The translations under genes and the position numbers were made by a program. The notes below the pieces were generated by a model. That model searched no databases and was not told the DNA's origin. It saw only the letters and a list, made by a program, of their open reading frames with translations. Below, in pieces: positions 1,998 to 61,527 of a stretch of DNA of 64,000 nucleotides. The number at the start of each line of letters is the position of its first letter. Positions within the stretch are counted from its first letter, which is position 1. The stretch comes from a virus (lineage: Duplodnaviria > Caudoviricetes): the IMG/VR virus record IMGVR_UViG_3300048598_000287, positions 1-64,000 of that record; one strand, written 5' to 3'.

Positions 1998-2009
1998 CAG
2001 GAGAAAATT

Positions 2010-3167: not shown

Positions 3168-3208
3168 TGTAAAGTTGAATGTAAAGTTGAATGTAAAGGT
3201 GAATGTAA
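3160..3208 (+). repeat. 12-bp tandem repeat AAGTTGAATGTA x4
   Basis: Directly visible at the array trailer. Confidence 0.9.
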
Positions 3209-3270
3209 AAATGTTCCCCACGTATTGGGCACATTTGCTATATTGAAAGCGATCGTGTTTTGCAACCTGT

Positions 3271-3322
3271 TCCATCACCCTGTTCCATGACCGGTTCGAG
3301 AGATGGATAGGCCACCGTATAT
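3271..3322 (+). promoter_or_regulatory. Bipartite motif TCCATCACCC-N30-GCCACCGTATAT upstream of cas3 (also at 6558, 7013, 8689, 12923, 15699, 19809)
   Basis: Conserved boxes with 28-30 nt variable spacing, usually followed by the CAACAAGGAG RBS. Confidence 0.7.
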
Positions 3323-3349
3323 AGATGGGTATCAACAAGGAGTCTGAAT

Positions 3350-41164: not shown

Positions 41165-41210
41165 TTTAGCCTCTCAATGAATTTGTGAATTTAGTTATTG
41201 CTGGCATCTT

Positions 41211-41569
41211 GTACTTCGAATAGCTTATCGAACGTTTTCTTTTCATAAGTGCCTTACTTTTCAGCCTTCATAAGAATATTAGTAAATACCATCAATCCGG
41301 CAAAGAATAATCCTAATAGCATTATTACAACTAGCCAGCCAGATAATTCATTGGCCACTTGTATATTATTTAATAGCAGGTATAATCCCGTGCTAAGGGA
41401 TATAGACATCATCAAACTAGACATTACTAATTTCATATTGATTTCCTTAAGTTTTTACAATTAAATATACATAGAATTTATATTTTTCCACATGGTAAAT
41501 AGCAATATTGCTATTTACTTATCCAATGGGTTATAGTACCATGTATGATGTACTTCAGATATCCACTCA
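41211..41569. repeat. ~359-bp direct repeat, second copy at 44276-44634
   Basis: Near-identical; contains the 60-aa membrane ORFs 41254-41436 and 44319-44501. Confidence 0.85.
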
Positions 41570-41713
41570 TGCCAACGTTCAACACTGTATCATAATGTTA
41601 CAGTAAAATGTAATTTATCAGAAGCAAGAGTTATTGACATCAATTTTATATTTCAATGGGATTTTAATGGTAACTTCGTCGGGATTATCGGTAGGCATCG
41701 CTACATATATTTC

Positions 41714-45508: not shown

Positions 45509-46831
45509 GTGAACTACCCTCACCCTAAAGGGAGTGGGCTTCTTTTCGTTTCAACGGATCAGCTATGGAAGTTCCCTGCAAGCAGGGGACGGACAGGAGA
45601 TTCTCGACGGAGGGGCGTTCCGCCCGCTCGGCTCTGTGTGACGAGCCGATCAATAGAATGTTCTTTGCGGCATGAATATCCCTGTCCTCAGTCATGCCGC
45701 AGTCACAGGCGAAGATGCGCTTGCTGGGCGGCATATTGAGGAGGGAGCCGCATGCCGTGCACAGCCGGGTCGTGGGTTCCCATTTTGAGAGTTTAAATGA
45801 TGCAAAGCCTTCTTTCTGGATGAGTTTCTGTTTGATTCTTCCGAGGCATGAATGCTGGACGGCGCGGCCATAGCCGCGGCGTCTGCATCTTTGCCAGGAA
45901 GCGATCTGTTCATCCTGGAAATAGACAAAATCATAATTGGCATAGATCCAGTGAATGATCTTGTTGGCCTTGTCATCCCGCACATTGGATATGTGCTGAT
46001 ATTCACGCCGCACGAGCCGGAGAAGATGATTCCGTCGCTTGGATTCCTTATCGTGCTTCAGTGCCAGATGGCGCTGGAGCCGTGTAAGTTTCTCGGTTTC
46101 TTGCTCGGATACATCGAACTTCGTCCCGTCGGACACGGTCACCGTGTCCTTTATGCCCATGTCAATCCCGCAGGATCTGCCCGTCTTGGGCAAATCAGCG
46201 ATTTTAGCAGTCAGGCAAAGCTTTATATGGAAGCCGTCAGGCTTCCTCAATAGGCAGCTGTCATGCAGCTGATATGATTCAAATTTATTGAGATGTTCCA
46301 GACCGTGAACTTTCAGATTAGGAAATCCCGGGATCGTCATCATTGATCCGCTCTTTATCGTCATTCCCTGATGCCGGATCGGAAGGCTGCTCACCTCGCG
46401 GCGGAATCTCAGCTTCCCTACTTTTCCGCCTTTAAGTTTCTTCTTGTTAAGATTCTTAACGTCTTCCTTAAGTTTCTTTATCAGGTTCTGATGGATTCCG
46501 GTGTTGAGCGTGATCTCACGCTCAACCCGATTGTGTTCACGATCAAAACACAATACCTTGCGGTGCTCATTGTATTTATAACCGAAGATATCACCTGTCG
46601 ATATGGCGTCGTTTATCGACCACTTGGCCTCGACGAAGGCATGAGAAAGACGACGCAAGACGGACTTATCCGTCTTGCGCGCATTTACCTTCAAATCTAT
46701 CTGCCTTATCGCTTCCATCATTTATATAATTTATATCCTTGACTTTAATATACATTTTTATTATACTGTTATCTATGGCGGAATTCATCTCCCCGGACTA
46801 AATTCCGGGAGTTTTCTTCCGCAAATCTCCG
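45509..46831 (-). mobile_element. Non-autonomous IS200/IS605-family (IS1341-like) element
   Basis: tnpB only. Subterminal hairpins at both ends. Right end ...GTAGTTCAC; TTTAT immediately 5' of the left end. Confidence 0.75.
45525..46721 (-). CDS. tnpB: TnpB RNA-guided endonuclease
   Basis: GIDMGIKD (RuvC-I), YFQDE (RuvC-II), CTACG/CDCG zinc finger, DRDIHAAKNI (RuvC-III). Confidence 0.92.
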   Translation of the reverse strand: MMEAIRQIDLKVNARKTDKSVLRRLSHAFVEAKWSINDAISTGDIFGYKYNEHRKVLCFDREHNRVEREITLNTGIHQNLIKKLKEDVKNLNKKKLKGGKVGKLRFRREVSSLPIRHQGMTIKSGSMMTIPGFPNLKVHGLEHLNKFESYQLHDSCLLRKPDGFHIKLCLTAKIADLPKTGRSCGIDMGIKDTVTVSDGTKFDVSEQETEKLTRLQRHLALKHDKESKRRNHLLRLVRREYQHISNVRDDKANKIIHWIYANYDFVYFQDEQIASWQRCRRRGYGRAVQHSCLGRIKQKLIQKEGFASFKLSKWEPTTRLCTACGSLLNMPPSKRIFACDCGMTEDRDIHAAKNILLIGSSHRAERAERPSVENLLSVPCLQGTSIADPLKRKEAHSL

Positions 46832-47057
46832 ATAAACAAATCTTAACCTGCGTCTCAGCCTTGATTTCCGCGTCGCGGCGCTGGAGGTCGGAGTAACATC
46901 ACACAATCTGAACTGGATATTCACCAAGATGGAAAGGCGTTAATAGAATACAACAGGTGTAACATCAGACAAACCGAATCTAATCTTCATCCATTCTTTT
47001 GTACGCATCGCACCGCATGCAGGTGTAACATCAGACAAACCGAATCTAATCTTCATC
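46832..47057 (-). repeat. CRISPR-like mini-array A: 36-nt repeats at 47022, 46956, 46890 plus a degenerate end; three 30-nt spacers
   Basis: Period exactly 66; unique spacers. Confidence 0.85.
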
Positions 47058-47428
47058 TGATTCTTCATAAATCGTTGAATATCTTCATATTGCAATGAAT
47101 ACTTATCATAAAAAATCTCCCATACACGAGAACAACTTACCAAGAAATGCTTATTTTTTCCGGTTAACTGAATGTCAAACATCCATTCATCATCTGAATT
47201 GCGAAGATCTATACGATGGGTGGGTAGTTTGCTTTCATCACCATATTCATCCAGGAACACCGTATTTGTGCATTGTCCAAGTAGTTCCAGGAACGTCTTA
47301 TCAAATTCTTCCTGAGTAACCTCAGGTTTCTCTAATTCTGCTTTAGAGAACTTGGTGAGCATCAGGGATTTCATCTCATCCGATTCATTATAGATCTTTC
47401 TTGCTTCTTCAATTGTTAATTCTGCCAT
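46940..47428 (-). CDS. MAELT-family array-associated protein
   Basis: Paralog family; reads through two repeats (KIRFGLSDVTP twice). Confidence 0.85.
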   Translation of the reverse strand: MAELTIEEARKIYNESDEMKSLMLTKFSKAELEKPEVTQEEFDKTFLELLGQCTNTVFLDEYGDESKLPTHRIDLRNSDDEWMFDIQLTGKNKHFLVSCSRVWEIFYDKYSLQYEDIQRFMKNQMKIRFGLSDVTPACGAMRTKEWMKIRFGLSDVTPVVFY

Positions 47429-47451
47429 GGTAGGCCTCCATATAATATTTA

Positions 47452-47601
47452 ATAATCCAATCCGAATCTAATCGTCACCCTAGAAAACGCTCATGATAAA
47501 TCAATACCTGGTGTAACATCATTCAATCCGAACCGGATATTCACTACATGCTCCGTAGTCGGAACGATGTAATATCATCCAATCCGAACACGGTGTTCAC
47601 C
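47452..47601 (-). repeat. Mini-array B: repeats at 47566 and 47510, partial ending 47479; spacers of 20 and 30 nt
   Basis: Visible repeats. Confidence 0.8.
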
Positions 47602-47972
47602 TGATTCTTCATAAGTCGTTGAATCGCATTATCTTGCAATGAATACTTATCCTTGAAAATCTTCCATACCCTAAAATAACTTACCCAAAAATGCTTATTT
47701 TTTCCTGTGAAGAGGATGTCAAACATCCATTCATCATTTGGTTTTCTAAGTTCTCTGCGGTTAGTGGGAAGTTTGCTTTCATAACTATTTTCATCCAAGA
47801 ACACCGTCTTGGTGCATTGTCCAAGTAGTTCCAGGAACGTCTTGTCGAATTCTTCCTGTGTAACCGCATGCTTCTCAAGGTCTTCCTTAGTGAACTTAGT
47901 GAGCATCAGGGATTTCATCTCATCCGATGATGCGTAGATCTTTCTAGCTTCTTCGATTGTCAATCCGGGCAT
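47544..47972 (-). CDS. MAELT-family array-associated protein
   Basis: Paralog. Confidence 0.85.
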   Translation of the reverse strand: MPGLTIEEARKIYASSDEMKSLMLTKFTKEDLEKHAVTQEEFDKTFLELLGQCTKTVFLDENSYESKLPTNRRELRKPNDEWMFDILFTGKNKHFWVSYFRVWKIFKDKYSLQDNAIQRLMKNQVNTVFGLDDITSFRLRSM

Positions 47973-48112
47973 ATTTTATCTCCTTAATATGATGCAATTA
48001 AATATAGATATTTAATTGGTCATTGTCAACTACAAATGATACCAGAATTCGGATCAATTGGAATAATATGTATATCGGGTTTAATGGCCATTAAATTATT
48101 TATAGTCTCTTT

Positions 48113-48215
48113 GCTGTAACATCATCCAGCCCGAATCTAATCTTCACCATGTATCCGACAAATGTCATAATCCGTCTTGATTGTAACATCATCCAATCCG
48201 AACTGGATATTAACC
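48113..48215 (-). repeat. Mini-array C: repeats at 48180 and 48113; 31-nt spacer
   Basis: Visible repeats. Confidence 0.8.
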
Positions 48216-48586
48216 TGATTTTTCATAAGTCGTTGAATATCAATATCGTACATCGAATAGGTATCCACGAAAATCTTCCATACACGGTAATGACTTACCC
48301 AGAACCGCTTATTTTTCCCGGTGAACTTAATATCAATCATCCATTCGTTATTAGAATTTCTTAGTTCTATCGTGTTTGTGGGAAGATTGCTTTTTTCACC
48401 ATATTCATTCAGGAACGCAATCTTGGTGCATTGACCCAGTAATTTCAGGAACGTCTCGTCGAATTCTTCCTGAGTAACCGCATGCTTCTCAAGGTCTTCC
48501 TTAGTGAACTTGGTGAGCATCAGAGATTTCATCTCATCCGATGATGCATAGATCTTTCTTGCTTCTTCAATAGTCAATTCGGGCAT
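48137..48586 (-). CDS. MAELT-family array-associated protein
   Basis: Paralog; start MPELT. Confidence 0.85.
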   Translation of the reverse strand: MPELTIEEARKIYASSDEMKSLMLTKFTKEDLEKHAVTQEEFDETFLKLLGQCTKIAFLNEYGEKSNLPTNTIELRNSNNEWMIDIKFTGKNKRFWVSHYRVWKIFVDTYSMYDIDIQRLMKNQVNIQFGLDDVTIKTDYDICRIHGED

Positions 48587-48626
48587 ATTACATCTCCGTT
48601 GATATCTTAAATATATTAGCCAAGGA

Positions 48627-49043
48627 TTAAACGGGTATTTTTCCATAACGGTATTTAATGAATTTCAAATCATTTTCATCAATATAGCCATCCTGGATGA
48701 GGTTGTTACCGATTGCCTGCTCATCATACCACTTTTCATATGTATCGGGCATATCCCTATTTTTTATATATTCGTCTAAAGTCTCATTATAGCCTTCATA
48801 TTTTTTCCATTCATCGTTGAAAACGAATCCTTTTGCATTTAATTCATGTTCTGAAAGAACGAATTCTTCACACAGGTCAGGTTTTATTATGCAAACCCAT
48901 TGCCACCTAGGTTCAGCATCGCAAGTATAGTTCAGCTGAGAAAGCAAATGCATAGAAGGGAAAATATATTTCGTTCCGGAAAACCGATATACGGGAGCAT
49001 CAAAATATGTGTCTAAAAGTTTACTTTTACATTGTGCTTTCAT
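48627..49043 (-). CDS. Hypothetical protein
   Basis: ORF. Confidence 0.6.
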   Translation of the reverse strand: MKAQCKSKLLDTYFDAPVYRFSGTKYIFPSMHLLSQLNYTCDAEPRWQWVCIIKPDLCEEFVLSEHELNAKGFVFNDEWKKYEGYNETLDEYIKNRDMPDTYEKWYDEQAIGNNLIQDGYIDENDLKFIKYRYGKIPV

Positions 49044-49059
49044 AAATAGATACCTTCTG

Positions 49060-49144
49060 TTTCAATGTTTCCATAGCAGCATGCTAGGGTTTTAGTTAGC
49101 TTCATCTAGATAGTTCTCGCGTATTCAATCGTCAACTCGGTCAT
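49060..49144 (-). pseudogene. Decayed MAELT-family 5' fragment
   Basis: MTELTIEYARTI-stop after the family RBS GGAGGCCTACC and a terminal-repeat remnant. Confidence 0.6.
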
Positions 49145-49883
49145 GGTAGGCCTCCGTATAATATTTAATTATCCAATCAAATCCTGTTATTCATCCTGGT
49201 ATTTCTTAGATGCATCACATGTTATTGTCGGATAGTTAGGAAACTCATAGAACTTCAGTGGTTTTATGTTTGGTGTGTCAAATGGGCCTCGCAATGCCCA
49301 GTGAATTCCGTCATTGTCGTTCGCCTGTTTCTTCAATTCTTCCAGCGAAAACAAATATTCAATGAGGGCCACCTTTTCCGCATTGCTTAGGGAATCTGAT
49401 GTCATGATTAGGGTCTTCAGTTTTTCTGAACTATTCATATTATCATTCATTTAATTATCCTTTCCTGGAATATATTTCCAAGTTCAATCTGGTGATTGGT
49501 AATTCAATCTCTATAGGTAAACTATATTTTCTGCGATACCGTTACGATAGGAATTCACGGTACTGTCCGTTTCTGGGTGTTCTAATGTGGGAAATGACGT
49601 ATGTCAATATCAACCGATATAGATTTCGCAGATTCGTTAGTTACAATCAATGCATATTGTTCTCTACCGTTAATTATTGTAGATGTGTATTTTGTCACAC
49701 GCATCGACTTAGCAATGGACATGGTGTCAATATCTATTTCAGCATCGCCGGCTATTTTACGGGAATCAATGATATATGCAGAAAATTTTGAGCCCGATAA
49801 TACATTCACCGATGTCCATCCCGTGATAGAAATAGGCAAATTTACGGCGATCAATTTATTAGGACCTAGGATAGCCATTTAGC

Positions 49884-50306
49884 TCAGCCTCCGCCTTGTA
49901 CACAGTTCGCATACGGTTCGTTAAGTGGATGAATGGATAGCGTACCCCAGGCGTTTGGTTCACGACAAGTACGGGATTTAATCTGTGCCATAGCTTCTTC
50001 GGTAGTATGCGCTATGGCAAATGCCACGCCACGTGTATAAGCTGAGCAAAAATCTGTCCAGACAAATAACCGTAAGTTTTCGTTCATAATAATCTTAGGT
50101 ACTTCATCTGGAATAGTTGGCGCTGAGATAGTCGATCTAGACGATAATCCTTTGAAACCATACCATTTGTCGCGTTTCTGAACGGTTTCCGAATATATAT
50201 CAAGACATCCCTTTAGATATTCTGCCAGAACAAAATCAGGCGTATCCGATTCGTTTTCCTTACTGTACTTATTGATCAGCAATTCAAGCTCATTTTCAAA
50301 TTCCAT
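49884..50306 (-). CDS. Two-module hypothetical protein (C-terminal module shared with 37725-37925)
   Basis: LRLFVW..FC..YT.G.AFAIA in both. Confidence 0.65.
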   Translation of the reverse strand: MEFENELELLINKYSKENESDTPDFVLAEYLKGCLDIYSETVQKRDKWYGFKGLSSRSTISAPTIPDEVPKIIMNENLRLFVWTDFCSAYTRGVAFAIAHTTEEAMAQIKSRTCREPNAWGTLSIHPLNEPYANCVQGGG

Positions 50307-50333
50307 TATCGTCCTCTATGTAAAATATCAATT

Positions 50334-50532
50334 GATGTGACATCATCCAATCATAACCGGATATTCACTACATGCTCCGTAGTCGGAACGATGTAATATC
50401 ATCCAATCCGAACACGGTGTTCACCCACTGATTGATACATATCCTGATGGAGGAATGTGTTCACCCACTGATTGATACATATCCTGATGGAGGAATGATG
50501 TAATATCATCCAATCCGAACACGGTATTCACC
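50334..50532 (-). repeat. Mini-array E: repeats at 50497, 50390, 50334; a duplicated 31-nt spacer and a 20-nt spacer
   Basis: Visible repeats. Confidence 0.85.
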
Positions 50533-50904
50533 TGATTCTTCATAAGTCGTTGAATCGCATCATCTTGTAATGAATATGTATTCGCAAAAATCTTCCATAT
50601 CCTAAAATAACTTACCCAGAAATGTTTATTTTTTTCCTGTGAAGAGGATGTCAAACATCCATTCATCATTTGGGTTTCTAAGTTCTATACGATTGGTGGG
50701 AAGCTTGCTTTTATAACCATGTTCATTCAGAAACACCGTATTTGTGCATTGTCCAAGTAGTTCCAGGAACGTCTTATCAAATTCTTCCTGAGTAACCTCA
50801 TGTTTCTCAAGTTCACTTTTAGAGAACTTGGTGAGCATCAGGGATTTCATCTCATCCGATGATGTGTAAATCTTTCTTGCTTCTTCAATAGAAATTTCTG
50901 CCAT
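50421..50904 (-). pseudogene. MAELT-family gene with +1 frameshift in an A7 run (50629-50635)
   Basis: The paralog at 47544 has A6; the two ORF halves reconstitute a full protein. Confidence 0.8.
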
Positions 50905-50926
50905 AGTAGACATCCTTATAGTTAAT

Positions 50927-51096
50927 CACCAATACGAACATTGCAATCAGCCTAGAAAGCGAGCATGATAACTACCTGATGTAACATCAGTCAATCCGAA
51001 CAGAGGGTTCACCTCCCGTTCCATTATGCACGTCCGTGAAACGGGTCCTACAGGCCCCACATTGTAACATCATCCAATCCGAATCTAATCTTCACC
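50927..51096 (-). repeat. Mini-array F: repeats at 51061 and 50978, partial ending 50951; spacers of 47 and 26 nt
   Basis: Visible repeats. Confidence 0.75.
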
Positions 51097-51467
51097 TGAT
51101 TAGTCATAAGTCGTTGAATATCAATATAGTTCAATGAATAGGTATCCGCTAAAATATTCCATACCCGGAAATTATTTAACCAGAAATGCTTATGTTTTCC
51201 TGTGAAGCAAATGTCAAACATCCAATCGTTATTTGAATTTTTGAGTACTATGCGGTTTGTGGGAAGCTTGCTTTCAACCCAATCTTCATCCAAGAACACC
51301 GTCTTGGTGCATTGTCCAAGTAGTTCCAGGAACGTCTTATCAAATTCTTCCTGAGTAACCTCATGCTTCTCTAATTCTGCTTTAGAGAACTTGGTGAGCA
51401 TCAGGGATTTCATCTCATCCGATTCATTATAGATCTTTCTTGCTTCTTCAATTGTTAATTCTGCCAT
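51048..51467 (-). CDS. MAELT-family array-associated protein
   Basis: Paralog. Confidence 0.85.
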   Translation of the reverse strand: MAELTIEEARKIYNESDEMKSLMLTKFSKAELEKHEVTQEEFDKTFLELLGQCTKTVFLDEDWVESKLPTNRIVLKNSNNDWMFDICFTGKHKHFWLNNFRVWNILADTYSLNYIDIQRLMTNQVKIRFGLDDVTMWGL

Positions 51468-51497
51468 AGTAGGCCTCCTTATATAAGTTAATTAGAT

Positions 51498-51718
51498 AAT
51501 CCGAACTGGATATTCATCTGATTCCAAAGGATCTGAACGGCGGCACGGATGTAATATCATCCAATCCGAACTGGTTATTCATCTATGATATCAATGGGAA
51601 CGTTATTCATGCAAGGTGTAACATCATTCAATCCGAATCTAATCTTCACCCAAGTTTCTGAGCAACCCGTATGATTTTCCTTGGTGTAACATCATTCAAT
51701 CCGAATCTAATCTTCACC
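51498..51718 (-). repeat. Mini-array G: repeats at 51683, 51615, 51548, partial ending 51518; spacers of 32, 31 and 29 nt
   Basis: Visible repeats. Confidence 0.88.
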
Positions 51719-52089
51719 TGATTCTTCATAAGTTTAGTAATATCATTATCTTGCAATGAATACTTATCCTTGAAAATCTTCCATACCCTTTCAGAACTTA
51801 CCCAGAAATGTGGGTAGTTTCCTATGAAGAGGATGTCAAACATCCATTCATCATTTGGGTTTCTAAGTTCTATACGATTGGTGGGAAGATTGCTTTTATA
51901 ACCATGTTCATTCAGGAACACCGTCTTGGTACATTGCCCAAGAAATTCCAGGAAGATCTTATCGAATTCTTCTTGAGTAACCTCATGCGGTTCAAGTTCA
52001 TCTTTCGTGAACTTAGTGAGCATCAGGAATTTCATCTCATCCGATGATGCGTAGATCTTTCTTGCTTCTTCAATTGTCAGGTCTGGCAT
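51646..52089 (-). CDS. MAELT-family array-associated protein
   Basis: Paralog; start MPDLT. Confidence 0.85.
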   Translation of the reverse strand: MPDLTIEEARKIYASSDEMKFLMLTKFTKDELEPHEVTQEEFDKIFLEFLGQCTKTVFLNEHGYKSNLPTNRIELRNPNDEWMFDILFIGNYPHFWVSSERVWKIFKDKYSLQDNDITKLMKNQVKIRFGLNDVTPRKIIRVAQKLG

Positions 52090-52156
52090 TGTATATCTCC
52101 TTAATGTGATGTAATTAAATATACATTTTTTACACCTCATTGGCAAGTGAGTTTAA

Positions 52157-52417
52157 TCATTTCATATCAAGATGACTAGATATGTATGAATGTACACTTT
52201 TCCAAAGCTGGTCCACATCCGAATCGCATCGTACGATTACGTCAGCAACTTTCTGCTTATTGATGTGCACGGACACCTGACCAGTTGAATCCGATATCGT
52301 AATCGAATCTTCACCTGATCCGTAAAAAATAACATGGACGGCGTCGCCTACTGTCACATGCATGATACGTACGGCATTGATGAAGATTTGATCATCAGTT
52401 ATCACACTTATTTTCAT
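52157..52417 (-). CDS. Hypothetical protein
   Basis: RBS GGAGG. Confidence 0.6.
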   Translation of the reverse strand: MKISVITDDQIFINAVRIMHVTVGDAVHVIFYGSGEDSITISDSTGQVSVHINKQKVADVIVRCDSDVDQLWKSVHSYISSHLDMK

Positions 52418-52487
52418 ATGTTCCCTCCTGTATTGAGCTCTAGCTCAGAATACCTATAATGAATCATATTTCCATTGACATCATACA

Positions 52488-53081
52488 TTAATACCACCAT
52501 TCATGTCCATCTGACCTTTTATTATGAATAATGCTCCCATCGGCATCGTACCAATCTTCATGCCCATAGGAATCCTTATAATGAATGCATTTTCCATCGG
52601 AATCGTAATCCCACCAGTGTTCATATCCGTCAGTAAGTTTCTTATGAATGCATTTTCCATCGGAATCATAGTAATACCATATTTCTGATCCGTCGGTATC
52701 CTTATAGCGAATCGGCTTCCCGCTCTCATCAAACCAATGTTCGGATCCGTTGGAATTTTTCGTATAGATCAGTTTTCCATTGGCATCGTACCACCATTCG
52801 AATCCATCTGAGGCCGTATAATGAATAAGATGCCGATTTCCATAGGAATCATATTCATACCATTTTTCAGATCCGTTGGGATACTTCGTATGAATCATGT
52901 TCCCATCGGCATCGTACCACAATTCATTACCCATTAAATCCTTCAGATGACTCGATTTATCAGAGTCCGATGAATCATCGGCTTCAAGGATTTTCTTGGA
53001 GAATTTGGTGAGCATCAGGGATTTCAGCGCATCAGAGTTGTGATAGATATTTCTTGCTTCTTTAATAGTCAATTCCGCCAT
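52488..53081 (-). CDS. MAELT N-terminal module fused to YD-like repeats
   Basis: MAELTIKEARNIY..KSLMLTKF followed by repeats. Confidence 0.85.
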   Translation of the reverse strand: MAELTIKEARNIYHNSDALKSLMLTKFSKKILEADDSSDSDKSSHLKDLMGNELWYDADGNMIHTKYPNGSEKWYEYDSYGNRHLIHYTASDGFEWWYDANGKLIYTKNSNGSEHWFDESGKPIRYKDTDGSEIWYYYDSDGKCIHKKLTDGYEHWWDYDSDGKCIHYKDSYGHEDWYDADGSIIHNKRSDGHEWWY

Positions 53082-53181
53082 GGTAGGCCTCCTTAAATAA
53101 TGATAAATCATAATTGATATTTAACTATCTTCCATTATGATATGTTGTAGATTCAATTAAAATATATGAAATTCTCCTTTG

Positions 53182-53925
53182 TCACTCAACTTTTTCTGCA
53201 TGACCAGAATACTCAACGAACTGATTGAATAGCTTTCTGGCAAGGCATCCTAATTCACCGCATTCATCACCATCAAGAAGCCCGAGATCTATAGCGTCCA
53301 TCTGATCCTTGAAATCATCGTAGTCTGCATATCCGCGCTTCAAGATGTCGGTAAGGATAGATAGCACGGCAGCCTTGCACGCATGCTGGTCCAGATATCC
53401 CCGCTCTTTATATTTGAATGTCCTGATTAGGCTGGAAAGAGGGTATTCGGAATGAATATATTCACTTCTTCTGGTCAAGAGATATTTCATATAATTATCA
53501 GTGAACTTAACATCTGATATATAATGTAATATTCCAGGTTCCCTATGCCTGACTTCCACACCTACCTGAACATGTGAAAAATCAAAGGTATTGATTAGTT
53601 GGTCAAGCGTAGGCTGGCGGTAAGAACAGAACTGCACCGGATAAGGGAACGTTTTCATGCGGACCGTGATTGCATTCTTCGTAGTGCTCAATACATCTAC
53701 TTCGGATATGTTATTCATCCGAAGGCGAAAATCTTCTCCGAATTCGTCCGAATCTGAGCCAGGATATACGTCGATATCATGCGGAGTATCTACGTTGCAT
53801 GAATTACCGGCGATGCGTACAGGATGATCAATCCCAATAGCATTGAACAACGCAGAAGGAATACGATACATCATTCTGCTCCTGATTTCATTAATAACTA
53901 GGTCATTCATAAATCTATAATACAT
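53182..53925 (-). CDS. Phage nucleotidyltransferase-like protein
   Basis: IAGNS..PHDIDVY, FDFSHVQ, RTFKYKERGY. Confidence 0.65.
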   Translation of the reverse strand: MYYRFMNDLVINEIRSRMMYRIPSALFNAIGIDHPVRIAGNSCNVDTPHDIDVYPGSDSDEFGEDFRLRMNNISEVDVLSTTKNAITVRMKTFPYPVQFCSYRQPTLDQLINTFDFSHVQVGVEVRHREPGILHYISDVKFTDNYMKYLLTRRSEYIHSEYPLSSLIRTFKYKERGYLDQHACKAAVLSILTDILKRGYADYDDFKDQMDAIDLGLLDGDECGELGCLARKLFNQFVEYSGHAEKVE

Positions 53926-54066
53926 AATGCTGTCCTTTGCTTAAAATATGAATATAATCAGTTTTCCACGCTAAATATAGCATATTATCAACACATTGTA
54001 AATCAATTTCAGAAATATTGATAAAATCATATTGAATTTTCATATATATTTTCTATATTTAACGGT

Positions 54067-54783
54067 ATGAAAACTATTAGATTCAATACATTTGAAACAA
54101 ATTCCAGCTCAACACATGCGCTTGCCATATGCAAGAAACCCCGCACGGGCGAAGAATTCACCGATCCGGACGAGTACGGAATTCTATGGATACGGCTTGA
54201 CAAATATTTCACCTCAACCCATCAGATATGTTATAATGAGGGGTATATCGACACCGGGGAAACATGTAGCTATGATGTATCCACCCAAATAAAATATCTT
54301 GTGACTCAGGCAGTATCATCGGCGATTAATAAATGCTGTAACAATAAAGGAAATGATTATGATAAGGCATACATCCAGATGCAACGGAATCTTTCCATTC
54401 TGAGACGTAAAATAATAGCTCCTGTATATTCCGAGCTGAATATGGATCTCGTTAAAAGTATAACCCCATATTATCTATTGGACGGCAAGCGGGTGATAAT
54501 ATCCGCATCCAGCATGCCTAAGCTATATGGCATGGGAATAGGGATTGATCCCGATGACATGTATAGCGATGATTTCGCGAGTGCCATTCGCACACAGGTA
54601 GAGGACTATTCTAATTTACATTGGAAACGCAAAACCACCCTTGAAGAAGCGATTGGCATATCGGGCGAAATAGATCGTCAATATGGAAAAAACTATGATA
54701 AGAGAACTATAGCTGAACTGACATTCAAGCTATGGCGCCTATCACTGACACACTATAGCGTGCAATATTTCTATCATACATGA
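54067..54783 (+). CDS. Phage hypothetical protein (FETNSSSTH family)
   Basis: N-terminal IRxxxFETNSSSTH motif. Confidence 0.75.
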   Translation: MKTIRFNTFETNSSSTHALAICKKPRTGEEFTDPDEYGILWIRLDKYFTSTHQICYNEGYIDTGETCSYDVSTQIKYLVTQAVSSAINKCCNNKGNDYDKAYIQMQRNLSILRRKIIAPVYSELNMDLVKSITPYYLLDGKRVIISASSMPKLYGMGIGIDPDDMYSDDFASAIRTQVEDYSNLHWKRKTTLEEAIGISGEIDRQYGKNYDKRTIAELTFKLWRLSLTHYSVQYFYHT

Positions 54784-55008
54784 AATGCATTATCCATTTA
54801 ATTATTATGCGAACCAGTATTTTGTATGATATATACCATAAGAAACACCAGCGACTTTCGTATGGTGAGGTGAATCATGTTGTGTAAAAATGTATATTAC
54901 CAATGGTAGAGTTAAGTATCAAAAGGAACACCGCACGCCGATGTCCTTCGCGTAAGTTGGTGGTTAATTTGCCGGATTATCTAATTAATTTATATAAGGA
55001 GGCCTGAC

Positions 55009-55443
55009 ATGGCTGAATTGACAATTGAAGAAGCCCGAAAGATCTACGCAACAACGGATGATATGAAATCCCTGATGCTTACTAAGTTCTCTAAAAGTGA
55101 ACTTGAGAAACATGAGGTTACACAGGAAGAATTCGATAAGACCTTCCTGAGATTACTTGGGCAATGCACCAAGACTGTGTTCCTGGATGAAGCGGGTGAT
55201 GAAAGCCCGCTTCCCACTAACCGTATCGAACTCAGAAATTCAGATAACGAATGGATGTTTGACATCCAGTTCACTGGTAAAAATAAGCATTTCTGGGTAC
55301 ATTATTCTCGGGTATGGTGGATTTTCAAGGATAATGATTCATTGCAATATGAAGATATTGTACGACTTATGAAGAATCAGATGAACTCACGGTTCGGATT
55401 GGCTGATGTTAAACCCCTAATTAAGGAAATCATATTTTTTTAA
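55009..55443 (+). CDS. MAELT-family array-associated protein
   Basis: Paralog. Confidence 0.85.
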   Translation: MAELTIEEARKIYATTDDMKSLMLTKFSKSELEKHEVTQEEFDKTFLRLLGQCTKTVFLDEAGDESPLPTNRIELRNSDNEWMFDIQFTGKNKHFWVHYSRVWWIFKDNDSLQYEDIVRLMKNQMNSRFGLADVKPLIKEIIFF

Positions 55444-55510
55444 CACCCGGTTCGGATTGGGTGATGTTCAATCCATAACGGGATGAATAACATGGTTGGA
55501 TTGGATTATT
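55380..55510 (+). repeat. Mini-array H (degenerate): repeats at 55380, ~55438, partial at 55482
   Basis: Visible repeats. Confidence 0.7.
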
Positions 55511-55532
55511 AACTAATATAAGGAGGCCTGAC

Positions 55533-55961
55533 ATGGCTGAATTGACAATTGAAGAAGCTAGGAAGATCTACGCATCATCGGATGAGATGAAATCGCTGAT
55601 GCTCACCAAGTTCTCTAAAGCCGAATTAGAGAAACACAACCTTACACAGGAAGAATTTGATAAGATCTTCCTGGAATTGCTTGGCCAATGTATTAAGACC
55701 GTGTTCCTGGATAAACACGGTCATGAAAATAAGATTCCTAATAACCGGGTAAGATTAATAGATGCCACTGATAATTGGCTGTTTGATATTCAATTCACAG
55801 GAAAAGATAAGCATTTCTGGGTAAGTAATTCCCGGATATGGAATTGTTTAGCGGATACATATTCATTGAACTATAGTGATATCCAACGACTTATGAAAAA
55901 TCAGATGAACACCCGGTTCGGAATGGGTGATGTTACACCCTTCATTTTTTCACATACGTAG
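55533..55961 (+). CDS. MAELT-family array-associated protein
   Basis: Paralog. Confidence 0.85.
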   Translation: MAELTIEEARKIYASSDEMKSLMLTKFSKAELEKHNLTQEEFDKIFLELLGQCIKTVFLDKHGHENKIPNNRVRLIDATDNWLFDIQFTGKDKHFWVSNSRIWNCLADTYSLNYSDIQRLMKNQMNTRFGMGDVTPFIFSHT

Positions 55962-56031
55962 CGGAACACGTTGAACACTGGGTTAGGATTAAACCATAAC
56001 GGGATGAATAACATGGTTGGATTGGATTATT
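55904..56031 (+). repeat. Mini-array I: repeat at 55904, 30-nt spacer, partial repeats
   Basis: Visible repeats. Confidence 0.7.
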
Positions 56032-56053
56032 AAATAATATAAGGAGGCCTACT

Positions 56054-56482
56054 ATGGCTGAATTGACAATTGAAGAAGCCAGGAAGATCTATGCAACAAC
56101 GGATGATATGAAATCCCTGATGCTCACCAAATTCACTAAGGAAGCCCTTGAGAAGCATGAAGTTACTCAGGAAGAATTCGATAAGATCTTCCTGGAATTG
56201 CTTGGCCAATGCTCCAAGACGGCGTTTCTGAATGAAGTGGGTGATGAAAGCCAGCTTCCCAATAACCGTATAGAACTCAGAAATTCAGATAACGAATGGA
56301 TGTTTGACATCCAGTTCACTGGTAAAAATAAGCATTTCTGGGTACATTATTCTCGTGTATGGAAGATTTTCATGAATACTTATTCGTTGGAAGATGTTGA
56401 TATTAAACTACTTATGAAGAATAAGATACATATTAGGTTCGGATTGGATGATGTTACCCCTTGTAGTTATTGGAAATGTTGA
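56054..56482 (+). CDS. MAELT-family array-associated protein
   Basis: Paralog. Confidence 0.85.
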   Translation: MAELTIEEARKIYATTDDMKSLMLTKFTKEALEKHEVTQEEFDKIFLELLGQCSKTAFLNEVGDESQLPNNRIELRNSDNEWMFDIQFTGKNKHFWVHYSRVWKIFMNTYSLEDVDIKLLMKNKIHIRFGLDDVTPCSYWKC

Positions 56483-56592
56483 TCTGCGAAGATACATATT
56501 AGGTTCGGATTGGATGATGTTACCCCAGAGACGGCTATGCTGACGCGGCAGTAGAAGATACATATTAGGTTCGGATTGGATGATGTTACACC
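56425..56592 (+). repeat. Mini-array J: GATACATATTAGGTTCGGATTGGATGATGTTACMCC at 56425, 56491, 56557; two 30-nt spacers
   Basis: Period exactly 66. Confidence 0.9.
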
Positions 56593-56655
56593 CTGCTACA
56601 ATTCGTATTTCTACAGGGTGGGATTGAATTATTAAATTATATAAGGAGGCCTACC

Positions 56656-58209
56656 ATGGCTGAATTGACGATTGAAGAAGCAAGAAAGATCTACGCATCA
56701 TCGGATGATATGAAATCCCTGATGCTCACCAAATTCACTAAGGAAGACCTTGAAGAGGATTATACATCGTCCTCTTATGATAACCAGAATCACGGGCATG
56801 ATTCCCAGGGTAATGATTTTTGGTGCGATATCAATGGGAACGTAATTCATAAGAAAGCTCCAAATGGATTCGAAGCATGGTTCAATACAGATGGAAAAGT
56901 GATTCATAAGAAGCATTCTGACGGGTTTGAGGAATGGGTTGACTATGATTCTTATGGAAGAACTAATCATGTGAACGATTCCGATGGGTCAGAACGCTGG
57001 TACGAATACAATGCTAATGGGACAATATCACACGCTAAGTTTTCTGATGGGGAGGAATGGTGGTGCAATATCAATGGAAATAAGAGTCATTCCAAGTGGT
57101 CCGACGGATCCGAATCGTGGTACGATGCCAATGGAAATGACATTCATGGAAAAAATTCCGATGGATCGGAATGCTGGCATGATTTTGATAGCAATAAAAA
57201 ACTGATTCATAAGAAGTATTCCAATGGATTGGAAGAGTGGTATGATGCCACGGGGAATATGATCCGGTTGAAAGATTCCCTCGGATATGAAATGCGGTAT
57301 GAATATGATGCCAATGGCCACCTCATGCGCGAGAAGGATTCCTTAGGATGGGAAAAGTGGTGTGAATATGATGCCAACGGGCATCTGATTCACTCAAAGG
57401 ATTCAAATGGATTCGAACGGATGCATGAATATGCTACCGATGGGCACCGCATTCATGAGAAGGATTCGGACGGGCGCGAAAAATGGTATGATGCCAATGG
57501 AAAAATCATTCATTCTAAGTCTTCCGACGGAGTAGAAAAGTGCGAATCATGGTTCGATACCAATGGAAAACTGATTCACTTGAAATGTTCCGACGGTTTC
57601 GAATATTGGTATGATGCCGATGGGGAACTGATCCATTATAAGGATTCCGACGGAGATGAATATTGGTATGATGCCATAGGAACCCTTATGCATAAGAAGA
57701 TTTCCGATGGATCAGAAGAATGGTATGAATATAATGCTAATGGAAGGCTAATTTATGCAAATAATTCCGATGGATTTGAATCTTGGTATGAATATGGAGC
57801 CAATGGGCGAATGATTCATAATAAGACTTACGATGGATCAGAAGAATGGTATGCTACCGATGGGCACCGCATTCATGAGAAGGATTCGGACGGTTTCGAA
57901 TATTGGTATGATGCCAATGGGAATATCATTCATGAAAAGGATTCCGATGGATCAGAAGGTTGGCGGGATTTTGATAACAATAAAAAATTGATTCATAAGA
58001 AGTATTCCGACGGATTAGAACACTGGTATGATGCCAATGGGAACGTAATTCATAAGAAAAATCCAAATGAATTAGAATATTGGTGGAAATATGATGCCGA
58101 TGGGAAATTGAGTAATGAAATATGTTCTGATGGGTCAACCCGATGGTATTCTTATGATGCCCATGGGAATATGATTCATATGAAGATTTCCAATAGAACA
58201 TCTATTTGA
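56656..58209 (+). CDS. MAELT N-terminal module fused to a long YD-like repeat region
   Basis: MAELTIEEARKIY followed by ~22 repeats. Confidence 0.88.
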   Translation: MAELTIEEARKIYASSDDMKSLMLTKFTKEDLEEDYTSSSYDNQNHGHDSQGNDFWCDINGNVIHKKAPNGFEAWFNTDGKVIHKKHSDGFEEWVDYDSYGRTNHVNDSDGSERWYEYNANGTISHAKFSDGEEWWCNINGNKSHSKWSDGSESWYDANGNDIHGKNSDGSECWHDFDSNKKLIHKKYSNGLEEWYDATGNMIRLKDSLGYEMRYEYDANGHLMREKDSLGWEKWCEYDANGHLIHSKDSNGFERMHEYATDGHRIHEKDSDGREKWYDANGKIIHSKSSDGVEKCESWFDTNGKLIHLKCSDGFEYWYDADGELIHYKDSDGDEYWYDAIGTLMHKKISDGSEEWYEYNANGRLIYANNSDGFESWYEYGANGRMIHNKTYDGSEEWYATDGHRIHEKDSDGFEYWYDANGNIIHEKDSDGSEGWRDFDNNKKLIHKKYSDGLEHWYDANGNVIHKKNPNELEYWWKYDADGKLSNEICSDGSTRWYSYDAHGNMIHMKISNRTSI

Positions 58210-58302: not shown

Positions 58303-59343
58303 ATGAATGACATATCACATGCATTTCCTAATCCTCAATATCTTGGATGCAAATACAGACATTTAGACTGGATAGGACATTATATTCCGGGCGGGGTATC
58401 TAAAGTCGCGGATGGATTTGCCGGATCGCAGTCAGTATCATATTTCATGAAAGGGAAAGGCTATGAAGTATATGCCAATGATTTCATGAATTATAGCAAT
58501 CAGATAGGAAAGGCTCTTATAGAAAACTCATCGGATAGATTATCGGATGACGATGTTCAGATGTTGTTTTCGGGAAATTCAAATCCTGAATATTACAATT
58601 TGATAGAAACTGAATTTTCCGATCTGTTCTTTAGCAGAGAAGATGCAAGATTGATTGACGCATTCAGAAGCAATGTAGATAGGCTTAATTCCGAGTACAA
58701 GAAGGCCCTTGCATTTTCCATAATCAACCGTACGCTTACCCGCAAAATAACAATGGGGCACTTCGCTCATACAAAAGCGCTTTCATATGCTAATGATGCA
58801 GATAGAATAAAAAGAAATGCCAGCCTTGCCCGCCCCATAAAAGATATGTTCAACGAATTTTTAACTGAATATAACGCGGCGGTATTTGACAACGGACGGG
58901 AAAACCATAGCTTCTGCGGAGATGTAATGAATTTCATAGAAGCGCTTCCTCCAGTAGATATGATATACTTAGATCCACCTTATGTAAATTCCCATCCGGA
59001 TTACCAAGGATACTATCATCTGCTAGAAACATTAGTGAATTATTGGAAAGACAAGAAATTCATTAATTCCATACATAGGTATGAACCAAAGATACATAGT
59101 GGATTCGACACGAAGAAAGATATAATGGCCTCTTTCGGAAGATTGTTTCTTCTATCAAAGAAAATACCTTATTGGCTGATAAGTTATAATGACCGATCGT
59201 ATCCGGATAAAAAAACAATACTTGATATGATTGAACCATATAAGAGAGTAGAGGTGATAGAGAAGCCATACATGAATAGCGTAGGCGGGAAAGGAAGTGT
59301 AAAAGGATGTAACGAGCTGCTGTTCATATGCCGCCCGTATTGA
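58303..59343 (+). CDS. DNA adenine methyltransferase (D12/FokI-like)
   Basis: YLGCK, DGFAGSQSVS, YLDPPY. Confidence 0.88.
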   Translation: MNDISHAFPNPQYLGCKYRHLDWIGHYIPGGVSKVADGFAGSQSVSYFMKGKGYEVYANDFMNYSNQIGKALIENSSDRLSDDDVQMLFSGNSNPEYYNLIETEFSDLFFSREDARLIDAFRSNVDRLNSEYKKALAFSIINRTLTRKITMGHFAHTKALSYANDADRIKRNASLARPIKDMFNEFLTEYNAAVFDNGRENHSFCGDVMNFIEALPPVDMIYLDPPYVNSHPDYQGYYHLLETLVNYWKDKKFINSIHRYEPKIHSGFDTKKDIMASFGRLFLLSKKIPYWLISYNDRSYPDKKTILDMIEPYKRVEVIEKPYMNSVGGKGSVKGCNELLFICRPY

Positions 59344-59356: not shown

Positions 59357-59809
59357 TCAAAGATGTCCTGATGGCCATATATACGGAAGATCCGTTCGGG
59401 TGGTCCAGAATTTTTTCCTAGCATAATATTCCGGACATTTTCGCAGCAAGTTTGATTGATGCGCCAGATGAAACTCTCTGCATCCTATCCATTCCGGGTC
59501 ATTTTCTGAAACATCGTGATGCATGATATATGAAGAAAAAACATCTGATCTGGAATAATTAATGAATCGAATTCGCATGGAATCCTTGTATTTCCGGTTG
59601 ATCCATTGATCACATATTGCCATTCCATACCGTATCAATGCAAGTTCATGCCCTTTCCACATAGCTACGGCAGGATGATGTATCCATCCTCTATTTTCAA
59701 CCAGTGCAATGAGTATTTGCATGGCTTCTATACGCTGTTTGCCTAATCGTCTGTAATCTAGGCATTTTGCACTCTCATTGAAATCTGGAAATGGAAGAAA
59801 TGTTTGCAT
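59357..59809 (-). CDS. Pyrimidine-dimer DNA glycosylase-like protein (MSMEG_6728/endonuclease V family)
   Basis: MQTFLP, LDYRRLGKQRIEAMQI, HHPAVAMWKG, HQSNLLRK. Confidence 0.85.
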   Translation of the reverse strand: MQTFLPFPDFNESAKCLDYRRLGKQRIEAMQILIALVENRGWIHHPAVAMWKGHELALIRYGMAICDQWINRKYKDSMRIRFINYSRSDVFSSYIMHHDVSENDPEWIGCREFHLAHQSNLLRKCPEYYARKKFWTTRTDLPYIWPSGHL

Positions 59810-59881
59810 ATGAAGAATATAGAAAGATTAATGGATCTTGGCTAGATTCTCCGTATTTTAGTTAATTAAAAATGATAATCA

Positions 59882-60307
59882 TTACTGCATTGTTTTCTTC
59901 TGGTGGGCATCTCGTATTTTCATGAGAAGCTTTCCAAGGTTATTAGCGCCAAATTCATCAACTCCCCAGAAATGATCTCCCCATGTATTTCCTTCAACCA
60001 GTTCTTCATTACCTGTATCGATAAGCCGTTTCATTAACGTCGGATTTTGAGCGAATTTTGCATTAAGAACCATTTCCATCATTCCGAGTCGCAGATCATC
60101 CCAGTTAGGGCGGATTGTAACGGATCTTCCAAGTTTCCTTGCATCTTTTCCTGCAAGATATGAAAATTTATCCCTAACCTTAGGGTCGATGGTTTTCATC
60201 GACATATACGCGCCTTCGCTGCAGGAATACATCCTGTTATCAACCATTAACGCGCATGGATAGAAATTAGATAGAAAATAATATTTTCCACGGAAATCGT
60301 TGATCAT
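59882..60307 (-). CDS. NADAR-family protein
   Basis: FLSNFYP, SEGAY, AKFAQN, LVEGNTWGDHFWG, NNLGKLLMKIR. Confidence 0.9.
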   Translation of the reverse strand: MINDFRGKYYFLSNFYPCALMVDNRMYSCSEGAYMSMKTIDPKVRDKFSYLAGKDARKLGRSVTIRPNWDDLRLGMMEMVLNAKFAQNPTLMKRLIDTGNEELVEGNTWGDHFWGVDEFGANNLGKLLMKIRDAHQKKTMQ

Positions 60308-60354
60308 GTATTCTCCTATTATATGTTGTATGGATGAGATGCCATGCAATTTCG

Positions 60355-61527
60355 TTAGATATCATCGTCGTCGAGGTCATGAGAAAAAATACCTGATGGT
60401 TTCCATATATGTTTTAAACTTTTAAAGAAACATTCGGGAAGGAATTTTCCATGATAATAGATCGACAGCAACGTTCCAACAAATTCTTTACCGGAATAGG
60501 CATGCTTTATCAGCATTGACGATATGAGTTTAATCTGCATGAAATATTCATATACTTCTTTTCTAGGGGAATCTCGTCTAACGGACGCAGCTTCCCATAC
60601 ATTGTCCAGCAATGCGTTTATTTCATCAGCCATGCGGGCCGCTTTCTCTGAAAGATCCGGATATTCTTCCGGAGCGGTATCCTTGTCAATGATGACATGG
60701 CGGAGTTCAGCATCAAGCGCCAGGTGGTCGAATACATTTTCAATGTTCAACGAATGAAATTTCTTCTGCAGTTCTAAAAACTCATTTCCCTTTATTTTAA
60801 GTTTGAATCCATTTTCGAATGTTACCACCACGCCTTCATGCTCGACGGGAAGGGCTTTTGCAAAATTATATACTTCTTCCATGGATTTAAATTCATATAC
60901 AGCCGGCATAGGGATCTTTATTTTAAGTGATTCCGATTTAAGACCGGAAAGAGGTAGTTCTATGCCCGTATTTGTTTCTGTTACGCCAATAAGATAAAGG
61001 CCCTCTGAATAATATTTTGTCAGCGGATGGATGTCCTGCTTATATACTATTTCAAATAGGTATGTGCGGGAATTGTCCATAGCTGATATATCAGCGTTTC
61101 TTCTTATCCATTCGGTAGCCCATTCGGCCTGATAACTATCAAAAGATCCTCCGGTTTTGACATACCATTTGCCATTCCAGAAGAATGCTATTCCAAGGCA
61201 TCCGTCGATTTTTTCTGTCACATAGAACGGCATCTGCATGTTTATTAAAAAATTGCTGCTGCCATAATTAGTCATAAGAATCGGTTCAGCATCGGAAATC
61301 GCCTTTCGTATGGACGACGCCCGCAAGGTTCCATCAAAAAGTTCTTCATAATTGAAAAATTTCACAAAAGGAAATGCCACCACATTATGATAAAGATCAT
61401 AGACTATTCCACGGGAAACCAATGACTCATAATCCCATGCGGTCTTGAAAATAGTCATTTCATCATATTTATATCCCATAAGCCCCTGAAGTTCTGGCTT
61501 ACATGAAGTGTGCAATCTAACTGTCAT
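60355..61527 (-). CDS. T4 Rnl1-like RNA ligase
   Basis: PFVKFFN, EKIDG (motif I), TYLFEI, EGVVV, KLKIK. Confidence 0.88.
   Translation of the reverse strand: MTVRLHTSCKPELQGLMGYKYDEMTIFKTAWDYESLVSRGIVYDLYHNVVAFPFVKFFNYEELFDGTLRASSIRKAISDAEPILMTNYGSSNFLINMQMPFYVTEKIDGCLGIAFFWNGKWYVKTGGSFDSYQAEWATEWIRRNADISAMDNSRTYLFEIVYKQDIHPLTKYYSEGLYLIGVTETNTGIELPLSGLKSESLKIKIPMPAVYEFKSMEEVYNFAKALPVEHEGVVVTFENGFKLKIKGNEFLELQKKFHSLNIENVFDHLALDAELRHVIIDKDTAPEEYPDLSEKAARMADEINALLDNVWEAASVRRDSPRKEVYEYFMQIKLISSMLIKHAYSGKEFVGTLLSIYYHGKFLPECFFKSLKHIWKPSGIFSHDLDDDDI

Follow-up and report, generated by a model that had tools for sequence, protein, structure and literature searches.

The virus record IMGVR_UViG_3300048598_000287 (IMG/VR; Duplodnaviria, Caudoviricetes), from a giant wastewater phage, contains a cluster of small paralogous genes, each of which ends in a repeat resembling those of CRISPR arrays. 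The window analysed here corresponds to the first 64 kb (64,000 nucleotides, nt) of this linear, 277,197-bp record. Nine paralogous genes of about 140 codons each were identified at 46.9-56.6 kb, six of them minus-strand and three plus-strand, and their 3' ends consist of a 36-nt repeat encoding the last 12 conserved residues of the protein, namely an FGLDDVTP motif and the four residues that precede it. In each gene, this terminal stretch does double duty, encoding the residues at the end of the fold and opening a CRISPR-type array as its first repeat. These gene-array units, hereafter designated as cassettes, are probably the products of CRISPR-type spacer integration. Phage-borne arrays without CRISPR-associated (Cas) proteins are already known; what was not found described in the literature searched is a first repeat translated as the end of a conserved protein, ten times in this genome, in a gene-fused layout that is present in hundreds of metagenomic relatives.

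The nine paralogues share 67-80% identity with one another, and a tenth cassette lies outside the window, with a gene at about 82.7-83.1 kb and a 4-repeat array at genome positions 82690-82914. The first-pass annotation of this DNA had described nine genes of a "MAELT" family, each with a terminal 36-nt repeat and one to three further copies of it behind every gene, the last copy usually decaying into the ribosome-binding site (RBS) of the next gene. All nine genes were found, together with the tenth. The downstream recurrence holds for eight of the nine window genes and fails for gene 55533, which has a solitary repeat, while terminal repeats are indeed degenerate and mostly merge with an RBS. 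Altogether, the window holds 22 repeat copies (up to 5 mismatches to the 20-nt core), and the ten cassettes comprise 26 repeats.

The borders of these units were fixed by three protospacer matches at the DNA level, all of which extend over the full spacer, stop where it meets the repeats and show a single mismatch. They define a 36-nt repeat, starting with GGTG or GATG and ending with CACC, and a 30-nt spacer. The array G spacer 51584-51614 corresponds to window positions 18156-18186 (30/31), within a YD/RHS-repeat gene (18093-19019, plus strand) to which it is antisense when read in the direction of the array. The array B spacer 47480-47509 matches genome positions 228365-228394 (29/30), within a DnaB-like helicase gene, and the gene-proximal spacer of the orthologous array in four relatives (L001-L004) matches genome positions 191148-191177 (29/30), within a 1,816-codon gene. 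The tails of 59 metagenomic alleles were also compared with the six-frame translation of the genome, and four of them were found to match other genes of the phage at 9/9, 9/10, 8/10 and 8/10 positions, the background maximum for the 59 tails being 7/10. Relative to their source genes, the seven phage-derived spacers run antisense in five cases and sense in two, a bias that is not significant, and no common motif was seen in the flanks of the seven protospacers. Comparison with public sequencing runs, which rests on assembled contigs, revealed a second source: in run X6, one contig matches only the array A spacer 46992-47021 and another only the first spacer of array J (56460-56490), both matches being flanked on each side by 255 nt of unrelated GC-rich sequence. 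Both are protospacers in another genome of the same habitat. The inserts were taken, in both orientations, from this phage or its relatives, and also from unrelated GC-rich DNA of that habitat.

Spacers are mostly of 30 nt. In this genome, spacers measure 30 nt (six), 31 nt (three), 32 nt, 20 nt (three), 22 nt, 47 nt and 71 nt. When the 29 distinct internal spacers of the phage and its close relatives are considered, 23 fall within 28-32 nt with a mode of 30 (15 of 30 nt, four of 31, two of 32, one of 29 and one of 28), and the others, of 20, 22, 47 and 71 nt, seem to have been damaged afterwards. Every array ends in a degenerate repeat. Pieces of DNA of 30 nt have been inserted behind the repeat and the repeat has been duplicated, giving a 66-nt period, with decay of the outermost copy. 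The first spacer is translated as the tail of the protein, so that each gene-proximal insertion rewrites this tail. Near-identical repeats, unique spacers of constant length, protospacers, and polarised growth at the leader end with a degenerate distal repeat are all general features of CRISPR arrays; the cassettes share them, the polarised growth probably so, but, unlike a generic array, no cassette has associated cas genes beside it. Overall, these data support the view that the units behave as true CRISPR-type repeat-spacer arrays.

Alleles of the same cassettes in metagenomes further illustrate this turnover. Two protein clusters (P0156 and P0158) are identical to the gene J product over 128/128 residues, and their tails are encoded by the third (S3) and second (S2) spacers of array J, respectively; therefore, alleles carrying S3, S2-S3 and S1-S2-S3 coexist. 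A further relative (L013) has a different unit ahead of S3. In the 82.9-kb array, L001-L004 differ from this genome by the gene-proximal spacer only, the two distal spacers being kept. The nested alleles, together with L013, suggest that units are probably added at the gene-proximal repeat. By analogy, with the gene standing where the leader does, this is the pattern of leader-proximal CRISPR acquisition.

The cassette layout extends well beyond this phage. A profile built from the paralogues retrieved 142 clusters (representatives at 50% identity), of which 59 had an E value below 1e-10, and a word-indexed search yielded 237 clusters of close relatives, none of which is named. Distant members retain a C-terminal motif of the same type and, where this motif recurs in frame, it does so with a 22-residue period in 13/13 intervals. 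At the DNA level, each of four distant members (L007, L008, L025 and L027) has two to four repeats that recur every 66 nt exactly. L007, L008 and L027 have identical inner repeats and the remaining locus near-identical ones, and the last repeat is degenerate in three of the four (L007, L025 and L027). Repeats of different lineages align without gaps, with nine invariant and seven nearly invariant columns. The family-wide search for 3' arrays proposed in the first-pass annotation thus returned distant homologues with arrays of a 66-nt period, and the recurrence of the layout with other repeat sequences indicates that it is not due to chance. In L027 the first spacer is of 30 nt, and a run of a 7-nt tandem repeat occupies the second, of about 37 nt (4408-4444). 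No match was obtained when three family members were compared by tblastn with 50,697 GenBank phage records, nor in scans of IMG/VR with the family or the repeat, near-identical records being possibly outside the scanned set.

Two readings that dispense with spacer acquisition have to be weighed against these data. According to one of them, the cassettes would act at the protein level, the repeat being a recognition motif and the spacers swappable or releasable C-terminal peptides, as in multi-core precursors of ribosomally synthesised and post-translationally modified peptides or in orphan modules of polymorphic toxins. The translation of the first spacer as a tail, the occurrence of two to four units in a single open reading frame (ORF) in several distant homologues, a motif that often ends in proline, and tails that are hypervariable among alleles with identical bodies are all in line with it. 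However, 8 of the 23 spacers in the 28-32 nt range have lengths not divisible by three, the repeat holds stop codons in both alternative frames, and many units lie in another frame or are ended by a stop, for which reasons the downstream units are not a protein repeat. Moreover, synonymous sites of the motif are frozen: in the first repeat, Phe is always encoded by TTC, Thr always by ACA, and Leu by TTG in four of five lineages, while the rest of these genes often uses synonymous codons for these residues. Selection thus acts on the repeat as DNA or RNA in its own right. Since spacers copy unrelated genes in either orientation, and also foreign DNA, a reading confined to peptides is largely refuted by spacer origin; no recurrent modifying enzyme, protease or immunity gene was found beside the cassettes, and we regard this reading as very unlikely.

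The other reading holds that the arrays are leftovers of 3'-end duplications and unequal crossing-over among tandem paralogues, with no dedicated mechanism. The paralogues are indeed tandem and recombining, as illustrated by a 93-nt block common to arrays B and D, and some spacers are of 20, 22, 47 or 71 nt, one of them with a tandem duplication. Yet duplication cannot account for 30-nt inserts of unrelated sequence lying between identical repeats, for exact, full-length copies of distant genes that have repeats at their borders, or for a 66-nt period kept in distant lineages whose repeats are different. Neutral decay is thus refuted by the protospacers and the conserved period, and it hardly deserves credence as an explanation of the whole. 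The absence of protospacers anywhere, along with homologues devoid of arrays, had been named beforehand as the outcome that would speak for such decay; protospacers were found and homologues do carry arrays.

With spacer integration favoured, the question becomes which CRISPR type the arrays resemble. Type VI-B (Cas13b) systems of Bacteroidota have a 36-nt repeat with complementary 4-nt ends, a 30-nt spacer, a 66-nt mature CRISPR RNA (crRNA) and no Cas1/2, and 27/36 of their natural spacers are antisense (Smargon et al., 10.1101/092577). The VI-B repeat ends, 5'-GUUG and CAAC-3', are paired and enclose a U-rich open loop. VI-B arrays gain spacers in trans via the Cas1 of a type II-C system, without strand choice (Hoikkala et al. 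2021, PMC8092290). The cassettes have the same 36-nt repeat and 30-nt spacer in a 66-nt unit, and their repeats also have complementary 4-nt ends. No cas1/cas2 occurs in the cassette loci, and their spacers show no strict strand choice, the antisense share of type VI-B (27/36) resembling the 5/7 of the cassettes, itself not significant. A degenerate terminal repeat, a transcription that would start from the leader side and a probable leader-side growth are further common traits. By eye, the repeat of L027 and the 36-nt repeats of F. columnare and F. branchiophilum (PMC5395568 Table 4) have in common the 10-mer TTTGAAGGGT, and the 5' and 3' ends of the L027 repeat also resemble those of these Flavobacterium VI-B repeats. 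In L007, the predicted fold pairs the repeat ends round an inner hairpin (-9.2 kcal/mol, 76% of the ensemble). In contrast to type VI-B, the "leader" of the cassettes is a protein-coding gene whose first repeat is translated, the arrays are tiny (one to four repeats), present in ten copies and carried by a phage, and neither cas13b nor csx27/28 occurs beside any cassette. Searches of Rfam, at the gathering score and at E values up to 10, returned no CRISPR direct-repeat or other family. A hairpin joining leader and repeat was considered as well and was not supported, its z-scores being not significant. The term "VI-B-like" is thus to be read as the best lead, not as membership.

The machinery expected for such arrays is absent from the cassette loci. 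The first-pass annotation had noted no Cas9, Cas13, Cas1 or reverse transcriptase adjacent to the genes, and this extends further: no cas genes were found beside the cassettes in any relative locus examined, the 277-kb record, about 66% complete, yielded no Cas1 (Cas2 was not searched) and no reverse transcriptase match (RVT_1), and ten of its large ORFs revealed no Cas effector (Pfam for all ten, PADLOC for the seven left unnamed by Pfam). The absence of Cas1 and reverse transcriptase from the record fits the earlier suggestion of an integrase acting in trans. The lack of a reverse transcriptase, together with variable parts that are unrelated to each other, also sets the cassettes apart from diversity-generating retroelements.

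Several known systems offer points of comparison. In the TnpB/IscB families, the omega-RNA overlaps the 3' end of the protein's reading frame, and in the cassettes, similarly, one stretch serves protein and RNA; unlike TnpB/IscB, the cassettes have neither a nuclease domain nor transposon ends, and they carry an array of acquired spacers instead of a single guide. The phage repeat mimics known as Racrs are RNA anti-CRISPRs that compete for the effector. Racrs are non-coding and are not known to collect spacers, whereas the cassettes are protein-coding and spacer-collecting. Compact, Cas-less CRISPR arrays are carried by huge phages (Al-Shayeb et al. 2020, PMC7162821; review PMC11656645). Like these, the cassettes are phage-borne, short, without Cas1/Cas2/Cas4 and, as is often the case there, without an effector; some spacers match other phages and the use of host Cas proteins has been proposed. 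Unlike these arrays, which are intergenic and have host-like repeats, the cassettes are fused to one protein family with the repeat inside the reading frame, and no description of gene-fused arrays was found in the literature searched. Finally, additional repeat-bearing RNAs were reported to deplete invader-derived crRNAs and to weaken Cas13b defence (Migur et al. 2026, PMC13187072), and a ten-cassette locus would likewise yield many repeat-bearing RNAs able to occupy an effector.

The explanation that we favour combines a gene-fused CRISPR-type array, an integrase acting in trans, a repeat of the VI-B kind and a host effector; taken as a whole, it appears probable on balance, if only slightly so, while that part of it which assigns the arrays to the VI-B kind and to the use of host Cas13b is a serious but tentative possibility. 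The integrase would be a Cas1-Cas2 complex supplied in trans, most likely by the host, and acting in infected cells. A host origin is suggested by the absence of Cas1 from the record, and the action of host Cas1-Cas2 in infected cells would explain why phage DNA is a main source of spacers. Gene and array would be co-transcribed from the gene (leader) side; a promoter and terminator scan gave counts as chance predicts, with no terminator signal between gene and array. The transcript would then be cut into spacer-repeat RNAs by a Cas13b-like effector of the host and loaded on it. The benefit for the phage may lie in flooding this effector with its own RNAs, the ten cassettes and their 26 repeats acting as decoys. 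Alternatively, spacers could aim the effector at competing phages. Acquisition from close competitors, or mutational escape, would be in keeping with the single mismatch by which such spacers differ from the phage's own genes.

A number of observations weigh against this explanation. Loss of gene-proximal units would yield the same nested series of alleles as their stepwise gain, and L005 and L014, which have 100% identical flanks and the same gene-proximal spacer, differ by one versus two distal units; therefore, recombination between arrays also occurs. Cassette repeats have GGTG/CACC or GATG/CACC ends instead of GUUG/CAAC, and the repeats of the phage itself are less VI-B-like than those of distant family members, the only ones with a U-rich centre. 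Folding of single repeats was not significant relative to shuffled sequences, and RNAalifold found no consensus pairs among 14 repeats, for which some minus-strand coordinates were off by 9 nt. Neither a Cas13b, among the ten large ORFs scanned, nor a Cas1 integrase was found in a record that is itself incomplete, and no bacterial array with this repeat was found in the representative genomes scanned, by scans that are weak. A 21-mer of the repeat gave two chance matches in unrelated genes of representative genomes; 401 Bacteroidota genomes scanned with a two-repeat pattern, and 151 genomes of a single order scanned with a sequence model, returned noise and no arrays, in scans too weak to establish absence. 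As phage-derived spacers run antisense to the phage's own genes in five of seven cases, the RNAs of these five would target its own mRNAs once loaded on Cas13b, which is awkward for a pure decoy. Lastly, this explanation does not account for the placement of the first repeat inside a conserved protein gene.

This last point brings attention to the protein itself. Searches of Pfam, PHROGs, NCBIfam and PADLOC gave no match to the family, and Pfam searches with longer or fused homologues returned nothing informative. An AlphaFold model of the gene H product, computed from 85 sequences, reached a mean pLDDT of 94.9 and predicts three short N-terminal helices followed by an alpha/beta domain (residues 34-141). 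In this model, the repeat encodes the end of the last helix and a loop, and the spacer-encoded tail forms an edge strand of lower confidence. Foldseek found no match in the PDB. The best VIA-align hits were MCM N-terminal and winged-helix DNA-binding domains, with Z scores of 4.0-4.8 that lie in the range of common arrangements, while the ESM Atlas returned only clusters of viral hypothetical proteins. A language-model feature search pointed to plant B3 DNA-binding domains at 0.90, a weak lead, and no conserved catalytic motif was seen in the domain. The first-pass idea that the protein binds or processes the repeat was not supported beyond a weak fold likeness to DNA-binding domains, and binding of repeat DNA or RNA by it is a guess.

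Such binding is central to a further rival, close to the minimal, autonomous system proposed in the first-pass annotation. Here the domain of about 100 residues would bind the repeat and recruit integration or process RNA at the 3' end of its own gene, without host Cas proteins, for example in antisense regulation or in warfare between phages. Protein and array are inseparable over the 142 clusters and the repeat sequence co-varies with the gene, the structural model is confident and weakly resembles nucleic-acid-binding domains, the relative loci examined have no cas gene near their cassettes, and most phage-derived spacers (five of seven) run antisense to genes. Against this stand a domain without a conserved catalytic motif, fold matches at the level of common arrangements, a binding function drawn from model likeness, and a size of 100 residues that is unlikely for an integrase with a 30-nt ruler. 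The geometry of the repeat, and partly its sequence, point instead to an array of the VI-B kind that needs a host effector and an integrase, so that autonomy was not upheld and appears unlikely. A broader version, doubtful in our view, is that the domain is a new phage-borne CRISPR-associated protein, marking the 3' end of its own gene for integration and/or binding spacer-repeat RNAs within a portable, multi-copy guide-RNA system of jumbo phages. This system would acquire spacers during infection and target rival phages or host transcripts, either without canonical Cas proteins of its own or by capturing those of the host.

The biological impact depends on which of these views holds. Growth of the arrays via a host integrase would mean that phage DNA is subject to spacer acquisition in nature and that phages take advantage of this; if cassette RNAs load host Cas13b, they represent a new anti-defence route or a new form of inter-phage competition; and if the protein is the active partner, it belongs to a new family of CRISPR-associated proteins. 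Through their nested alleles, public wastewater data allow acquisition to be observed directly.

Individual cassettes differ in their state of preservation. Among the six on the minus strand, gene A (46940..47428; 162 aa) has an ORF that reads through repeat 1, spacer 1 and repeat 2. Its array (46890..47057) consists of repeats 47022-47057, 46956-46991 and 46890-46925, the latter degenerate, separated by two 30-nt spacers (46992-47021 and 46926-46955). Gene B (47544..47972; 142 aa) is followed by array B (47444..47601), with repeats 47566-47601, 47510-47545 and a degenerate copy (47444-47479) that runs into the RBS of gene A, and with spacers of 20 nt (47546-47565) and 30 nt (47480-47509). Gene C (48137..48586) has its family start at 48586 within a longer ORF extending to 48646, and array C (48113..48215) comprises repeats 48180-48215 and 48113-48148 with a 31-nt spacer (48149-48179). 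Gene D (50421..50913) is interrupted near 50629 by a frameshift that leaves two ORFs. In contigs of three wastewater runs, one base is missing at 50629, whereby the frame is restored and the ORFs join into a full family gene, and the copy in the window is either a frameshifted allele or an assembly error. In array D (50334..50532), repeats 50497-50532, 50390-50425 and 50334-50369 enclose a 71-nt spacer (50426-50496) with a perfect 40-nt tandem duplication and a 20-nt spacer (50370-50389) identical to the array B spacer 47546-47565. Gene F (51048..51467; 139 aa) is associated with array F (50978..51096; repeats 51061-51096 and 50978-51013), which has a single 47-nt spacer (51014-51060). Gene G (51646..52089; family start at 52089) precedes array G (51548..51718), with repeats 51683-51718, 51615-51650 and 51548-51583 and spacers of 32 nt (51651-51682) and 31 nt (51584-51614).

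The remaining three cassettes lie on the plus strand. Gene H (55009..55443; 144 aa), whose product was used for the structure model, has an array (55380..55473) of two repeats (55380-55415 and 55438-55473) around a 22-nt spacer (55416-55437). Gene I (55533..55961; 142 aa) carries the solitary repeat (55904-55939), and at this locus a contig of run X5 shows an extra unit, with 27 other letters between two repeat copies. Gene J (56054..56482; 142 aa) is followed by array J (56425..56655), in which repeats 56425-56460, 56491-56526 and 56557-56592 have identical 20-nt cores and alternate with S1 (56461-56490), S2 (56527-56556) and S3 (from 56593); its decayed last repeat merges into the RBS of gene 56656. 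A remnant of the 5' region of the family, consisting of the upstream leader, RBS and first codons, is found at 49107-49197 with no full gene behind it, beside unrelated small genes (48627-49450).

A TnpB gene (OrfB_IS605 with a Cas12f1-like TNB domain; 45525-46721, minus strand) directly adjoins array A. As a driver of the arrays it was rejected, its 3' end facing away from them and cassettes elsewhere having no TnpB, and it looks like an unrelated insertion. In the relatives L002, L003 and L005, a TnpB, or an IS607-type resolvase-plus-TnpB pair, is inserted within or beside cassettes. The window also contains a large family of YD/RHS/MORN-like repeat genes, including those at 52488-53111 (minus strand), 56656-58209 (plus strand), 9635-10729 and 18093-19019, among others. 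A 33-residue N-terminal helical module of the array-linked genes is common to two of them (52488-53111 and 56656-58209). Wastewater contigs around 52.5-52.9 kb show many skips, back-steps and replaced segments, and this family is either hypervariable or collapsed by assemblers.

The record has a G+C content of 41% and an estimated completeness of about 66% (CheckV). Its genes include those of a family B DNA polymerase, T4-like, and of an anaerobic ribonucleotide reductase; the polymerase shares only 26-31% identity with those of T4-like phages, so that no host can be inferred from it. At least half of the sampled words of the 54.9-56.7 kb region were present in 17 wastewater, sludge or bioreactor runs from at least 12 studies. 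The beginning of the window (1-5683) is occupied by a phage-borne CRISPR-Cas locus of a type I-F variant, with a Cas7fv-like gene (3-977) followed by two unnamed genes, an array of nine 28-nt repeats with a 61-nt period (2661-3164) and Cas3 (3350-5683). The 28-nt repeat has another sequence than the 36-nt repeat of the cassettes, and the two are unrelated, as the first-pass annotation had stated for the type I repeat at about 2.7 kb. A 12-nt tandem repeat (3160-3207) lies directly behind the I-F-variant array. Three DNA methyltransferase genes, one of the N6_N4 type and two of the Dam-like D12 class, were located at 40268-42631 and 58303-59343, and a Type ISP methyltransferase-specificity protein without the nuclease/helicase part is encoded at genome positions 214152-216935. 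Just downstream of the cassettes, window positions 59357-61527 encode a DenV-like pyrimidine-dimer DNA glycosylase and a T4 Rnl1-type RNA ligase.

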